Positions 10,881-43,262 of a stretch of DNA of 47,021 nucleotides are shown piece after piece; the stretch's first letter is position 1, and each line of letters begins with the position of its first letter. The notes under the pieces are model-generated. The model saw nothing but the letters and a program-made list of their open reading frames with translations. It was not told the DNA's origin and did no database searches. The stretch lies in contig NW_021834875.1 of NCBI RefSeq assembly GCF_006345805.1, positions 1 to 47,021 of the forward strand, given 5' to 3'. This stretch comes from Octopus sinensis. Lineage: Eukaryota. The position numbers and the translations under genes were made by a program.

Positions 10881-10931
10881 TTTGTCAAAATATTTTCGTC
10901 GCTTTGAAACTGCGACCTGTTCACTGACAAA
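10881..10931 (-). ncRNA. Type I hammerhead ribozyme, G3-C8 core variant
   Basis: Minus strand reads UUUGUCA-GUGAACA-G-GUCGC agUUUcaaa GCGAC-GAAA-AUAU-U-U-UGACAAA: 7-bp stem I, 5-bp stem II and palindromic stem III AAUAUU. Confidence 0.7.
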
Positions 10932-10953
10932 ATTCCGAGATGCAGCACAGAAT

Positions 10954-11004
10954 TTTGTCAGTGAACAGGTCACAATTTCAAAGCGACGAAAACATTTTGA
11001 CAAA
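10954..11004 (+). ncRNA. Hammerhead ribozyme, G3-C8 variant, partly decayed copy
   Basis: Same fold, but stem II has a mismatch (GUCAC/GCGAC) and the stem III palindrome is broken (AACAUU). Confidence 0.5.
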
Positions 11005-11289
11005 TTATATTTAAATGTTGAAGTGAATCTAACGGTTTTTGTGTGATTTTAAGTGCTTTATAAACATCATCCAAGCTGCAATTGTTTTTGTTTCAGCACA
11101 CGATCTCAGATCAGGTCACTTGCTATGCAAGTACATCTCGGTAATAAATATTTAACGATTACGTAATATGTAGAGTGGGCAAAATTCTAACATTAGAACG
11201 GCACCAACATTCTTCAACGATTTTTTTAGTTAAACTGCTACGGAGATAAGATTAACTGATACAGTTGTTAAATGATCAATCAAGAGGAA

Positions 11290-11519
11290 AGCGGCGAGCT
11301 GGCAGAACCGTTAGCACGCCAGGCAAAATGTGTAGCCGTATTTCGTCTGCCGTTACGTTCTGAGTTCAAATTCCGCCGAGGTCGACTTTGCCTTTCATCT
11401 TTTCGGGGTCGATAAATTAAGTACCAGTTACGCACTGGGGTCGATGTAATCGACTTAATCTCTATGACTGTCCGTGTTTGTCCCCTCTACGTTTAGCCCC
11501 TTGTGGGTAATAAAGAAAC
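11290..11519 (+). mobile_element. Family A SINE, full length
   Basis: gcggcgagctggcagaaccgttag head through taaagaaa tail. Confidence 0.9.
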
Positions 11520-13206
11520 AGATTGCATGTGGTCGTTTGACTTGTTAGAAATGTCAACCAAAGCTACCTTACATCATAACTTAAACCACCTGAGGAGAAT
11601 GAAAGACGCTTTATGTAATATAGACCGCGATGCACTATGTTTGATTGAAAGATTTGATGACCATGACTGGAAAGCTTTTGATCATACGAATACTTGATAA
11701 GAATTGATCACTGGTTAAAGAGTAACAAAATCAATAATCCAGCTTTTAGAAAAATGGCTGTTCATACGAACATGAAACGAAGAGTAGCTTCCCACATCAA
11801 TGGCAATGTTAACTGCCACAACCGCCATAGTGCTGAGATGGACGCTACAAGACGTCTTGCATCGCTGAAATGACTCAACGTGAGATGTCTGTCTGTTGGT
11901 GGTTCCAGAGAATCGTAACATTCTTCTTAAGGAAGCACTACAAACTGAAGAATGTTCCCATGCAGTGTTACTAGATTTCCTCATCATTTACCAACTGCGA
12001 TGGTTAAATATTTCAGCTGTTAATGATTAAGGTGTCTCGTGGCCATTTTCAAGTCAAACTTGTACACACACACACACACACACACACACACACACACACA
12101 CATATATGTGCATGTGCGTGTATGTGACTGTGTGTGTGTGTGTGTTTATGCATATACACATACATGTATACATAAATACATACATAATTATATATGAAAA
12201 CACACATACCTATGTATGATGATGGTGATGATGATGACGATGATGATAGCTGTCCACTTCTCTCCAAGAAGAGCCAACACTCACTGCTAAAAGACTTGCA
12301 TTATATATGTACACACACATATATAATATATATATATGTATATGATATATATATACATATATATATAATATTGTATGTATATGTATATGTATATGTATAT
12401 GTGTATTATATATATATATATATATATATATATTAATATATAGTATATATATATATATATATATAATATATATATATCATTCACACTACGTAGTACTTGA
12501 ATGATATTCTTAAGGCCGCAATTTACTTATACGCAGCCTCTTTCAGAGCTTGTCACTAATTCCAAATGGAAAACAGTTAACATTTTTGAAGAGGACTGGT
12601 CCCTATCTATATTTTGGCGTAAAAAATTGAGATTTGGTCCAGTAGAAAAACGTTTACATCAAAATTTGTAGCTTCATTATAGGACAATAAGTAACGCCTC
12701 CAATCAAGTTTAGATCTAAATAATTTTTCATTTTAATAGCAAATATATATTTATTTTAGCTTTTATGATAGAAGAAAGCATGAAAAATTTCATAGTTTTG
12801 GTCCCATGCAATAAGACTTCGTATCCAAAAGTTGTGGGGTAAAATATCATGAAAAAATATATATATATAAGAAAGGCAAAAAATTGGATTTAAGTATAAT
12901 TAACTTTTTTGTTTTAAAAACAAACTCTAAGTTAATTAAGCTTAAATTAAGCTTAAATTCGAGGAATTTCATGGTATCAATCTCATACAATGAAGTTTTA
13001 AGAGAAAAAAGTTATGAGTGTTTGTTTCTCAAATTTGGGGGTGATAATATATATTCACATATATAAATACACACACACACACACACACACACACAACACA
13101 CCACACACATATATATATATATATATATATATATATATATTATATATATATATATATAACACATATACACACACACACACACATACATTATATATAAACA
13201 TATATG

Positions 13207-13370
13207 CGACGGGTCCCTTTCAGTTTCCGTCTACCAAATCCACTCACAAGATTTGGTCGGTCCCGATACTATAATAGAGTACACTCGTCCAAAGTGCAAG
13301 GCAGTGGGACTGAACCCAGAACCATGCGGTTGGGAAGCAAGCTCCTTACCACAGAGCGATGTCTGCGCCT
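13207..13370 (-). mobile_element. Family B SINE head
   Basis: Antisense of ggcgcag...tggtaag...gggttcagtcccact...ggtagacggaaactgaaa. Confidence 0.75.
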
Positions 13371-13909
13371 ATAGTATATTAGATTTTAGTGATGAATTCT
13401 CTGGAGTGTTGGTCGGAAATAAACAAGAGCAACGTTGAATCTCTTTTAATCTTTGTTGTTTATCGCGTCGAGGAGACATCATGGTGCAAATGTGAGAGTG
13501 TTCAGGTCTTTTTTTTTTTCTGCTTTCTGGTTGTTTAATGTGCGGTATACACCACCCTCACCATGCACACACACACACCACACACACACACACACACATA
13601 TTATATAGAGAGAGAGACTTATATATATATATGTTTATGTGTGGTATATATATATATATAATATATATATACACACACATAAACATATATATATATAAGT
13701 GTATAATATAATATATATAATATATATATATTATATATATATATATATATATATATAATATATATATATATATATATATAATATTATATATATTTAGCAA
13801 TTAAGGACAACTACTTAATAAGGAAACTTATAAGAAATTGTCAGTAGATAGCGTGAAAACCTCATAAGAGAAAAAATTTCGAAAATAATTATTTCTTATT
13901 GAACATATT

Positions 13910-14086
13910 AATTTATATATAGAGGGCATTATACATACATGCCAGAAGGCATTATACATACAAGCCACACGCTAAGAGGGACAATTAGTAGACAATTGGT
14001 AGAAATGACTAATTGTCCCTCTTAGCGTGTGGCTTGTATGTATATGCCTTCTGGCATGTATGTATAATGCCCTCTATATATAAATT
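13910..14086. repeat. Near-perfect 80-bp inverted repeat with 18-bp spacer
   Basis: Arms 13910-13989 and 14008-14086 differ by one indel. The repeat is embedded in (TA)n. Confidence 0.9.
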
Positions 14087-41097: not shown

Positions 41098-41452
41098 AGC
41101 TTCCCAACCACATGGTTCCGGGTTCAGTCCCACTACGTGACGCCTTGGCCAAGTGTCTTCTTCTATAGCCTCGGCCAGGCCAAAGCCTTGTGAGAGGATT
41201 TGGTAGACGGAAACTGAAAGAAGCCTGTCGTATATATATGTGTGTGTATTTGTGTGTTTGTGTTTCTTCCCCACCACCATCGCATGACAACCGATGCTGG
41301 TGTGTTTATGTCTCCGTAGTATAGCGGTTCGGCAAAAGAGAGCGATAGAATAAATACTAGGCCTACAGAGAATAAGTCCTGGGGTCGATTTGTTTGACTA
41401 AAGGCGGTGCTCCAGCGTGGCCGCAGTGAAAATGACTGAAGCAAGTAAAAGA
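41098..41452 (+). mobile_element. Family B SINE, 5'-truncated
   Basis: gcttcccaaccacatggttccgggttcagtccc through atgactgaagcaagtaaaaga. Confidence 0.85.
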
Positions 41453-41966
41453 AACAAAGGTGATTGTAAAATAGGTCATTAGTAAATAACATTCTTTAAT
41501 CGTAGCACACACACATACATACATGTACATATACACATACATGCATACAAGCATATACATACATACAAGCATACATACATACACACGCACACATACATAC
41601 ATACATACATACATACATACATACATACATCTACCTACATGCATACATACATACATACACATACATACATACATACATACTATACATCATACATGCATAC
41701 ATACACACGTATATACATACATCACACATATATACGCACACAATACATACATCCATACATACATACTACATACATACATACATACATCCATGCATACATA
41801 ACATACACACGTTATACTACATACACACATATTACATACACACACATACATAACATACTACATACATACATACATACATACATACATACATACATGCTCC
41901 ACATATAAAATGCATACATACTTATATACGTACATACATACATACACATGTACGCAAACACACATA

Positions 41967-42075
41967 TCTTAATATATAAAATCCGTTCTGTCTGTTGTCT
42001 GTCTGTTTGTGCGCTTATAACTCGAGTATTGTTCATCCGATCGCGCTGAAATTTTAAACATGGATACATGATAAA
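41967..42075 (+). mobile_element. Helitron-like 5' terminus fragment
   Basis: A|TCTTAATATATAAAAT followed by (CTGT)n and ccgatcgcgctgaaatttt, typical of non-autonomous Helitron starts. Confidence 0.5.
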
Positions 42076-42562
42076 TATGTGTCTGTGTGGTAGGAAACTT
42101 GCTTCCTGACTGCATGGTTCCGGGTTCAGTCCCACTGGGTGGTGTGCCTTGGGCAGGCGTCTTCTTCTAAAGCCTCGGACAGACTAAAAGCCCCATGAGT
42201 GGATTTGGCAGACGGAAATTGAAAGAAGCTCAATCTAGAAATAAATTTCAAAATAGTTAGTTCCAAGGTGAGAATATATACATACGCATGTGTGTGTGTG
42301 TAAGTAAATATGTGTGTGTGGTATATATACATACATATATATATATATATATATATATATATATATATATATATATTATATATATATATATGTATGTAAA
42401 ATAATAGTTATCGCCATACTAATATGGCATTCTTATAAAAATAAGAAAAAAGCTGTCCGCTTATTAGCTCCATGAGGCCATCGCCTTAAGTTAGCTATTT
42501 GATACACAAACTGTATCCATATAACCTTCGAACAAGGGAGGTCAGTCGCTCCACACTACTTG

Positions 42563-42624
42563 ACCGGCAGCTACAGACGCGTTTCGGGGTATTGCCCCTT
42601 TTCAATGCAGCGTAGCCAGCCAGT
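42563..42624 (-). ncRNA. Type I hammerhead ribozyme, U3-A8 variant (unit 1)
   Basis: Reverse complement of the motif at 43201-43262. Predicted cleavage is 3' of the C at 42576. Confidence 0.85.
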
Positions 42625-42920
42625 AGGTGTCGCTTCCGACAATCTCTGTTCTATGTTTTATTTACCTAGTTTCGGTGGAATACATCCACTTGTTTTCAAT
42701 AATAGAAATATTAAAATACTAAGTCTCTCTAAAAGAGAACAGCGGCAGCGTTCCCGGAAAATAATAGTTATCGCCATACTAATATGGCATTCTTATAAAA
42801 ATAAGAAAAAGCTGTCCGCTTATTAGCTCCATGAGGCCATCGCCTTAAGTTAGCTATTTGATACACAAACTGTATCCATATAACCTTCGAACAAGGAGGT
42901 CAGTCGCTCCACACTACTTG

Positions 42921-42982
42921 ACCGGCAGCTACAGACGCGTTTCGGGGTATTGCCCCTTTTCAATGCAGCGTAGCCAGCCAGT
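42921..42982 (-). ncRNA. Type I hammerhead ribozyme, U3-A8 variant (unit 2)
   Basis: Identical motif. Predicted cleavage is 3' of the C at 42934. Confidence 0.85.
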
Positions 42983-43200
42983 AGGTGTCGCTTCCGACAA
43001 TCTCTGTTCGATGGTTTTATTTACCTAGTTTCGGTGGAATACATCCACTTGTTTTCAATAATAGAAATATTAAAATAACTAAGTCTCTCTAAAAGAGAAC
43101 AGCGGCAGCGTTCCCGGAAAATAATAGTTATCGCCATACTAATAATATCGCCGAAACTAGGTAAATAAAACCATCGAACAGATTGTCGGAAGCGACACCT

Positions 43201-43262
43201 ACTGGCTGGCTACGCTGCATTGAAAAGGGGCAATACCCCGAAACGCGTCTGTAGCTGCCGGT
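43201..43262 (+). ncRNA. Type I hammerhead ribozyme, U3-A8 variant (inverted copy)
   Basis: ACUGGC uggcuac GCUGCA-UUGAAAA-GGGG caaua CCCC-GAAA-CGCG-U-C^-UGUAGC u GCCGGU, with the GUC site at 43247-43249. Confidence 0.85.

Follow-up and report, generated by a model that had tools for sequence, protein, structure and literature searches.

Hammerhead motifs with three different 3-8 base pairs in three repeat families of Octopus sinensis

Six hammerhead motifs of three repeat families

We analyzed a 47,021-nt stretch of the Octopus sinensis genome (contig NW_021834875.1), here called the window. Its six type I hammerhead motifs are the hammerhead parts of three repeat families, which, with a probability that we put at roughly 70%, encode self-cleaving ribozymes of non-autonomous elements copied by the reverse transcriptase (RT) of Penelope-like elements. 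We favor this reading, which is drawn from sequence comparison and predicted folds, because both the motifs and the families far exceed their shuffled or reversed controls; because all multi-copy families examined are paired at positions 3 and 8, four related sequences covary, and the U3-A8 unit folds strongly as a circle; and because related hammerheads lie behind RT-GIY-YIG genes, the G3-C8 elements form tailed inverted pairs, and a G3-C8 swap is known to rescue cutting.

The whole window was scanned with a structure descriptor that left positions 3, 7, and 8 free. Matches were found for C3-G8 at 20345 and 29201 (forward strand), for U3-A8 at 43220 (forward) and at 42963 and 42605 (reverse), and for G3-C8 at 10924 (reverse), compared to a mean of 0.05 and a maximum of 1 motif in 100 dinucleotide shuffles of the window. 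The scan thus recovered what had been originally predicted, namely, three different 3-8 pairs in three families, all of type I, two of them with an extra purine after A9 (A in the C3-G8 family and G in the G3-C8 family). Since the six motifs stem from four insertions of these three families, the 3-8 pair was sampled three times, not six. Five motifs carry the core N3-U4-G5-A6-N7-N8-A9 with a paired 3-8, G12-A13-A14, A15.1-U16.1, and H17; the motif at 20345 departs from it by U4C, which had gone unremarked.

In all families the core sits between stems I and II, with the open ends in stem I; this arrangement is weak in the C3-G8 family (4 bp, competing fold). A palindromic stem III and an unpaired base between 9 and 10.1 occur together in the C3-G8 and G3-C8 families, and the U3-A8 family has the palindrome and lacks the extra base. 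Each family had been assigned a 6-mer palindrome. ACGCGU and AAUAUU are in register (A15.1 to U16.1), but AACGUU, proposed for the C3-G8 family, begins at A14 and takes in residue 17, the in-register palindrome being the 4-mer ACGU followed by U17. The hammerhead models of Rfam are built for C3-G8 and for a stem III that is closed. They gave no match to one copy of each window family at E values up to 10, and an Rfam scan of the window returned microsatellite and hairpin noise, with no hammerhead among the 150 of 402 matches listed.

Organization of the three families

Both C3-G8 motifs are minimal hammerheads on the forward strand. The one at 29197..29231 (CUGACGA) has the extra A, 4 bp in each of stems I and II, ACGU, and U17; energy minimization predicts a competing hairpin for it instead of the hammerhead. 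It lies in a repeat element of about 200 bp (29128..29333). The motif at 20341..20375 (CCGACGA) belongs to the C4 subfamily and shares the extra A, 4-bp stem II, ACGU, and U17; its element, also about 200 bp (20272..20473) and set between microsatellites, is identical to the 29.1-kb copy at 191 of 201 aligned bases. Among the first 100 copies listed, 49 have U4C, or about half of the family; this subfamily is further set apart by a linked diagnostic base (7 C-C, 15 T-T, and 0 mixed). Copies are chiefly solo and occasionally in tandem.

The G3-C8 motif on the reverse strand (10881..10931; G3 at 10924) has a 7-bp stem I, the extra G after A9, a 5-bp stem II, AAUAUU, and U17, and both stems appear in its minimum-energy fold (z = -1.87). 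A seventh, damaged copy on the forward strand (10954..11004; G3 at 10961), recognized by alignment with other copies, has one stem II mismatch and a broken palindrome. The two lie head-to-head in an inverted pair of an element of about 200 bp (10834..11143), of which the forward arm is complete with a 3' tail and the reverse arm is shortened near 10834. In this family, inverted pairs with one longer, tailed arm recur, and solo single arms also exist. G3-C8 is the norm of the family (93 of the first 100 copies listed). The head-to-tail arrangement of non-LTR retrozymes is not found in this family: we detected a single junction match in the genome and no same-strand spacing of about 200 bp among the first 100 copies listed. 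Because G3-C8 copies almost never lie head-to-tail, they are without a partner on the same RNA.

The U3-A8 repeat comprises 2.1 tandem units of 358 to 359 bp on the reverse strand (42398..43144), with motifs at 42570..42611 (U3 at 42605) and 42928..42969 (U3 at 42963), and an inverted unit on the forward strand (43151..43487), with a motif at 43214..43255 (U3 at 43220). The latter has a 6-bp stem I extended by a long distal stem, a 4-bp stem II, ACGCGU, and C17; its fold has a z score of -3.19, and the cut is predicted between 43249 and 43250. Insertions of the family are tandem plus inverted. The unit is non-coding, 358 to 363 bp long, and 41% GC, with one type I hammerhead per unit and arrays of up to about 10 units, and so has the features of a non-LTR retrozyme (tandem units of 150 to 450 bp, less than 50% GC, one type I hammerhead). 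Folded as a circle, it reached a z score of -6.6.

Exact-pattern searches of the genome returned 11,255 C3-G8, 5,784 G3-C8, and 1,392 U3-A8 copies, compared to 0 matches for the reversed patterns. A fourth pair, A3-U8, was found in 75 copies and occurs behind a Penelope RT-endonuclease gene. Across five families there are at least 19,249 copies, about 70% of them without a plain CUGANGA core; searches for CUGANGA only would miss that share, and Rfam missed all three window families. The suggestion of a large, under-counted population is partly supported, but the density from which it was argued is unrepresentative. The window is about 8 times as dense as a 600-kb sample, from which we estimate about 41,000 motifs genome-wide (16,000 to 80,000), so that sampling gives some 40,000 and not the 350,000 that the window would imply, and the totals are inside the published range. 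A family-blind pattern (A3 or G3 core plus ACG palindrome) matched 3,607 times versus 3,293 in the control; many of these matches came from decayed C3-G8 copies read in a shifted register, and the pattern was dropped as a test. The genome scan originally proposed requires a stem I constraint.

Pairing at positions 3 and 8

The tertiary contact between positions 3 and 8 is a base pair whose bases can be exchanged, and a swap to G3-C8 gives partial rescue. All eight multi-copy families examined, five of them found independently of the window, were paired there. In the 600 kb, sampled blind, 3-8 was paired in 8 of 11 matches, compared to 2 of 16 in shuffled sequence (Fisher p = 0.003), the enrichment that the original prediction had expected of such a comparison; one singleton with a mismatch there turned out to derive by mutation from a C3-G8 family of 743 copies. 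Among four related hammerheads of ~350-bp repeats, 6 of 13 pairs, 3-8 included, change on both sides. Their alignment, which consists of these four sequences only and whose structure was written from them, has 98% of its cells paired, and its covariation score was reached by 0 of 500 shuffles.

Within families, on the other hand, we saw only unpaired single changes at position 3 or 8 (13, 7, and 1 among the first 100 copies listed). The idea that natural covariation marks functional folds is supported at the level of families. Given these unpaired changes and a U4C subfamily that multiplied equally, the pairing argues for selection on source elements and not for working genomic copies.

An alternative that we consider unlikely is that the motifs descend from hammerheads whose cutting has become dispensable, the families being passengers of the Penelope enzyme with paired cores inherited from older active ancestors. 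It would accommodate the success of the U4C subfamily, with its own linked base, and the absence of tandem partners from G3-C8 copies. In vitro, an anole Penelope element continued to insert when its hammerhead carried catalytic mutations, and Naiad elements spread without canonical hammerheads. Against it stand the compensatory changes among related families and the placement of subfamily-level G3-C8 variation in loop II (differences at 10.3% of free positions versus 1.5% of core positions, in a sample biased by being partly picked by core patterns). U4C also supports viroid infectivity.

Probable link to Penelope-like elements and a proposed model of spread

In other U3-A8 and A3-U8 families of the O. 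sinensis genome, the motifs lie 3' of GIY-YIG/RT genes. The window families share the insertion pattern of Penelope elements, tandem or inverted with the tail at one end; the inverted G3-C8 pairs, in which one arm is tailed, match a form described for those elements. No Penelope gene was attached to any of the three families in 14 regions checked, none of the families was in a Penelope 3' UTR at 30 GIY-YIG loci, and no Penelope gene lay between the two copies in four pairs of G3-C8 copies (2.8 to 6.7 kb apart), four of C3-G8 copies, or two of U3-A8 copies. We count this missing linkage against the ribozyme reading, together with the scarcity of G3-C8 tandems, the presence of U4C in about half of the C3-G8 family, the non-hammerhead best fold predicted for that family, and the indifference of in vitro insertion to catalytic mutants of one Penelope element.

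If the motifs are self-cleaving ribozymes, two copies in the RNA of a source element would base-pair with each other at both the stem III palindrome and stem I and cut after residue 17, which would yield unit-length RNA; in the U3-A8 family, the product would be a highly paired, probably circular RNA of about 360 nt. A Penelope RT-endonuclease would then reinsert the released RNA. Selection would act on few source elements, and hence each family would be fixed for one 3-8 pair, while most genomic copies would decay neutrally and are probably inactive.

In this model, partner choice would be set jointly by stem I, stem III, and tandem arrangement. The original prediction instead suggested that the palindrome could be a private key that confines dimer cleavage to its own family, which we judge improbable. 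It is true that no two of the window families share a palindrome and that the G3-C8 palindrome pairs with neither of the others (1 contiguous pair). However, ACGU, ACCGGU, and ACAUGU are each common to two families, and a relative of 82% identity has a different palindrome. The C3-G8 and U3-A8 palindromes can cross-pair (3 to 4 of 4 pairs), whereas stem I cannot (0 of 4) and alone already blocks cross-family cores. That the G3-C8 motif resembles a hammerhead only by chance, within a fold-back or MITE-type DNA repeat, as its frequent inverted pairs, the lack of a coding partner in the regions checked, the lack of an Rfam match, and the modest fold score might suggest, is hardly credible, because the core, G10.1-C11.1, extra purine, 7-bp stem I, and in-register palindrome co-occur where chance gives 0.05 motifs per window, and because solo arms exist and paired arms differ by the tail, unlike terminal inverted repeats.

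Relation to known hammerheads

Several of these features are already published, namely, the U3-A8 pair, the extra purine, the palindrome in stem III, and cleavage as dimers: Cervera and de la Peña (2014, PMC4209133) described the minimal type I hammerheads that Penelope-like elements carry and proposed the dimer model. Our families resemble theirs in the unpaired purine after A9, G10.1-C11.1, the palindromic stem III, and the occurrence of many families with thousands of copies per genome, opposite-strand pairs, and a U3-A8 variant (about 1,300 matches in Schistosoma). They differ in that the three window families are so far without a linked Penelope gene and in the presence of G3-C8 and A3-U8, neither of which is among the 56 representatives of that study (53 C3-G8, 2 U3-A8, and 1 U3-G8). 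The U3-A8 unit resembles animal non-LTR retrozymes (350 to 390 bp in mussel; Cervera and de la Peña 2020, PMC7229834; Li et al. 2026, bioRxiv 10.64898/2026.07.22.740005) in being non-coding, tandem, about 360 bp, 41% GC, and, by prediction, highly paired as a circle, with one type I hammerhead of 6-bp stem I and 4-bp stem II. Unlike them, it has a U3-A8 core and frequent inverted arms and is the target of a site-specific LINE.

Perreault et al. (2011, PMC3088659) reported natural U3-A8 covariation, tolerance of U4C in a viroid, and common 2-bp stems II. The core variants in that study are rare, whereas in O. sinensis they define families that number in the hundreds to thousands, with G3-C8 and A3-U8 added. 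The G3-C8 swap, a laboratory mutant in which cutting is at least partly restored (Roberts et al. 2023, PMC9901934; Frangieh et al. 2024, PMC11167929), is the family norm here. Natural families with G3-C8 or A3-U8 did not turn up in the literature searched, whose coverage did not extend to Lünse et al. (2017), and the G3-C8 form, with its thousands of copies, may be an undescribed natural variant of the known Penelope hammerhead arrangement. Natural variation of the hammerhead core would then extend from two pairs to all four. The equal-sized U4 and U4C subfamilies and the G3-C8 family without tandem partners offer natural test pairs for whether Penelope hammerheads must cut to spread.

A site-specific LINE in the U3-A8 repeat

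A young 5.3-kb LINE was found to use a single insertion target of 17 bases, a short distance upstream of the U3-A8 hammerhead; 627 candidates for this LINE were counted. The window holds three empty sites, at 43188..43204 (forward) and at 42621-42637 and 42979-42995 (reverse), recognized from LINE insertions elsewhere in the genome. With an APE endonuclease, an RT, and a fixed target with duplication, it is a target-specific LINE and a candidate member of the Tx1 clade. One array holds five LINE copies. The idea that a single composite unit gave rise to them by rolling-circle copying found no support, since they differ from one another by 4 to 13 substitutions, much as copies at other loci do (3 to 33).

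The APE endonuclease, RT, zinc-knuckle ORF1, and one fixed site in a multicopy repeat are shared with the target-specific LINEs of the Tx1 and R1 clades (Kojima and Jurka 2015, PMC4640811); a difference is that the target here is a hammerhead-bearing tandem repeat. No report of a LINE that targets a hammerhead repeat was found in the literature searched. If the arrangement works as its layout suggests, the flanking hammerheads would cut the LINE transcript from the array, as the HDV-like ribozyme does for R2, and one retroelement would be borrowing the ribozyme of another. A far-reaching possibility, to which we attach only tentative belief, is that all four Watson-Crick 3-8 pairs are active in one genome, G3-C8 (>5,700 copies) and A3-U8 being previously undescribed, and that the LINE inside the U3-A8 retrozyme is freed with precise ends by the flanking hammerheads.

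Hammerhead motifs and repeats of the window

We searched the window with a structure descriptor that left positions 3, 7 and 8 free, allowed U or C at position 4, and required stems I and II to be paired and the palindrome to be in register. The descriptor recovered six motifs at the places given by the original prediction, versus a mean of 0.05 per shuffle (100 shuffles). These six motifs derive from four insertions of three families, named G3-C8, C3-G8 and U3-A8 after the bases at hammerhead core positions 3 and 8. A seventh, damaged motif at +10961 is head-to-head with -10924 (window position of residue 3, with strand). 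Two further details differ from the prediction: position 4 of the 20345 core is C, and for C3-G8 the palindrome is not the 6-mer quoted but, in register, ACGU with U17 after it. This ACGU-U17 arrangement is the usual minimal form in the consulted part of the alignment of Cervera and de la Peña (2014; PMC4209133).

The window is one complete 47-kb contig of a 2.72-Gb animal genome, is rich in microsatellites and short repeats, and contains no long coding frame over its 47 kb. In character, its repeats presumably resemble octopus repeats. A broken transposase-like frame, whose motif we take to be of the Tc1/mariner type, lies at about 10280-10830 (- strand), and the G3-C8 element extends into it with its - arm. 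The hammerhead repeat at 20.3 kb and a microsatellite are closely followed by a short frame (about 20570-20770, + strand), the end of which presumably resembles the C-terminus of a restriction-like-endonuclease non-LTR element. A tRNA-like sequence at 16045-16116 (- strand) gave an Rfam match of 57 bits. A SINE-like repeat of ~185-190 bp, both tandem and dispersed, occupies 27425-28489, 3999-4481 and about 11295-11521, with 5.6 tandem copies at 27.4-28.5 kb.

Family sizes and copy numbers

Families were counted genome-wide with exact patterns carrying N at positions 3, 7 and 8. We obtained 11,255 matches for C3-G8, 5,784 for G3-C8 and 1,392 for U3-A8, and 0 for each reversed control pattern. 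Five exact patterns total 19,249, about 30% with the plain CUGANGA core (scaled from first-100 counts). In a blind sample of 60 x 10 kb from large contigs (600 kb), nine net matches give a density of about 15 per Mb, which scales to about 41,000 intact motifs genome-wide (16,000-80,000). The very large population that had been predicted is partly supported by this estimate, but window density overstates it, extrapolating to 347,000. In the literature, the totals given are 4,000-9,000 for coelacanth and Xenopus (PMC4209133), over 6,000 for a coral, about 5,000 for mussel and, according to a section title, up to 120,000 for axolotl.

The U3-A8 unit (358-363 bp) forms tandem and inverted arrays; its best copies are 97-99% alike, and as a circle it has a predicted fold z of -6.6. 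The G3-C8 element (~200 bp) occurs solo or as head-to-head pairs, one arm with a longer tail, and head-to-tail copies are almost absent (1 junction match genome-wide). In genomic extract L031 (near 1690-1740), a G3-C8-like motif that has diverged, with another stem II and a palindrome of 4 bases, suggests a second, older G3-C8 family.

Pairing at positions 3 and 8

The original prediction held that covariation at 3-8 argues for functional folds and that pairing combinations should outnumber non-pairing ones. In the 600-kb sample, rather than the whole genome, pairing was indeed commoner: 8/11 descriptor matches were paired, versus 2/16 from eight pooled shuffles (Fisher p=0.003). One unpaired match belongs to a 743-copy tandem family in which 99 of the first 100 copies listed are C3-G8, another shares flanks with a U3-A8 match of the same sample, and the third is among the weakest matches. 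Clustering of 1.17 Mb at a stricter cut-off gave seven multi-copy families. Together with the 743-copy family, all eight are paired (U-A three, C-G three, G-C one, A-U one), three having been chosen from the window and two being known from two copies each. When four related ~350-bp repeats were aligned over the hammerhead, both sides had changed at 6/13 pairs, 3-8 included; since the alignment has four sequences and its structure was written by hand, we take this as support and not as a probability. The 743-copy family, itself a related tandem repeat with a ~350-bp unit, combines a C3-G8 core with an 8-base palindrome (extracts L086 176 and L188-L191).

Covariation is supported at the level of families. 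Among the first 100 matches listed of each, the family pair was kept in 93 (G3-C8), 87 (C3-G8) and 99 (U3-A8), and none showed a compensatory 3/8 change. Departures were single unpaired or wobble changes, in C3-G8 mostly G8 to A at CpG, as expected from neutral decay of inserted copies. Position 4 of C3-G8 was C in 49, U in 50 and G in 1 of the first 100 matches listed, and in the 22 copies compared it was in complete linkage with a diagnostic base upstream. U4C therefore marks a successful subfamily.

Palindromes and partner choice

Family-specific palindromes had been proposed to restrict dimer partners. In the double-hammerhead model, a two-copy core requires stem I plus stem III between copies (PMC4209133), and stem I offers 0-2 contiguous pairs across families. 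Cross-pairing is possible between the palindromes of C3-G8 and U3-A8, three palindromes are each common to two families, and a relative 82% identical carries another palindrome. It follows that the palindrome does not act as a private key.

Probable relation to Penelope elements

A fourth family, A3-U8 (75 exact copies, A-U in 74; stem II 2 bp, stem I 6 bp), is located 3' of a Penelope RT-GIY-YIG gene, and its copies often form inverted pairs (L113, L125-L130, L141, L142). A U3-A8 hammerhead is present in the 3' region of a Penelope family with intact 780-aa ORFs and a CxxC linker that we take to be Neptune-like (L102, L111, L114-L117, L122, L124, L143). In the regions examined, no Penelope RT-endonuclease gene was found attached to any of the three window families. 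Most likely, the window motifs are ribozymes belonging to elements that are non-autonomous and mobilised by Penelope. On this reading, RNAs of source elements would undergo dimeric cleavage after residue 17, and the cut RNAs would be reinserted by a Penelope RT-endonuclease.

In one mutational scan, the G3-C8 swap was the only double change rescuing the core (Roberts 2023, PMC9901934). It partially rescued a Penelope hammerhead whose cutting required protein and was dispensable for insertion in vitro (Frangieh 2024, PMC11167929). The fold is accordingly likely to be real and selected in source elements.

Cervera and de la Peña (2014) already describe the extra base, the palindromes, the dimer model and U3-A8, and natural U3-A8 is also in Perreault 2011 (PMC3088659). 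None of the 56 examples in the consulted part of the former is G3-C8 or A3-U8, whereas both pairs form families here. We further compared Cervera 2020 (PMC7229834), a Li 2026 preprint, Weinberg 2019, Craig 2021, PMC3884650, PMC6155905, and Kojima and Jurka 2015 (PMC4640811), each in part. In the texts searched, natural families with G3-C8 or A3-U8 were not reported. The work of Lünse in 2017 reportedly contains about 150,000 variants, so both pairs may already be there. This is real biology, for the most part known, with a plausible new variant.

A site-specific LINE at the U3-A8 repeat

Within two U3-A8 arrays we found a young, L1/Tx1-like LINE of 5.34 kb (L138 1344-6684; also L139, L146-L186) encoding a zinc-knuckle ORF1, APE endonuclease, RT and zf-RVT. 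Its target is one 17-base site, duplicated on insertion and ending 15 bases 5' of U3. Literature text searches found no report of a LINE targeting such a hammerhead repeat. We scored 40 of the 627 first-look candidates and read the 30 that ranked best, a sample biased to young copies that includes the two discovery loci. The target, exact or one base off, directly follows the LINE in all of these best 30, and itself continues into the U3-A8 hammerhead in 28 and by another LINE head in 2. In copies read at both ends, it was present at the 5' junction in 12/12 and at the 3' junction in 11/12. All 14 aligned copies are full length, and five copies in one array differ as independent insertions do. 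LINE and repeat unit alternate in arrays (G000:C3:72.50-72.53 Mb), and the flanking hammerheads might release LINE RNA. Three empty 17-base targets are present in the window, at 43188-43204, 42979-42995 and 42621-42637.
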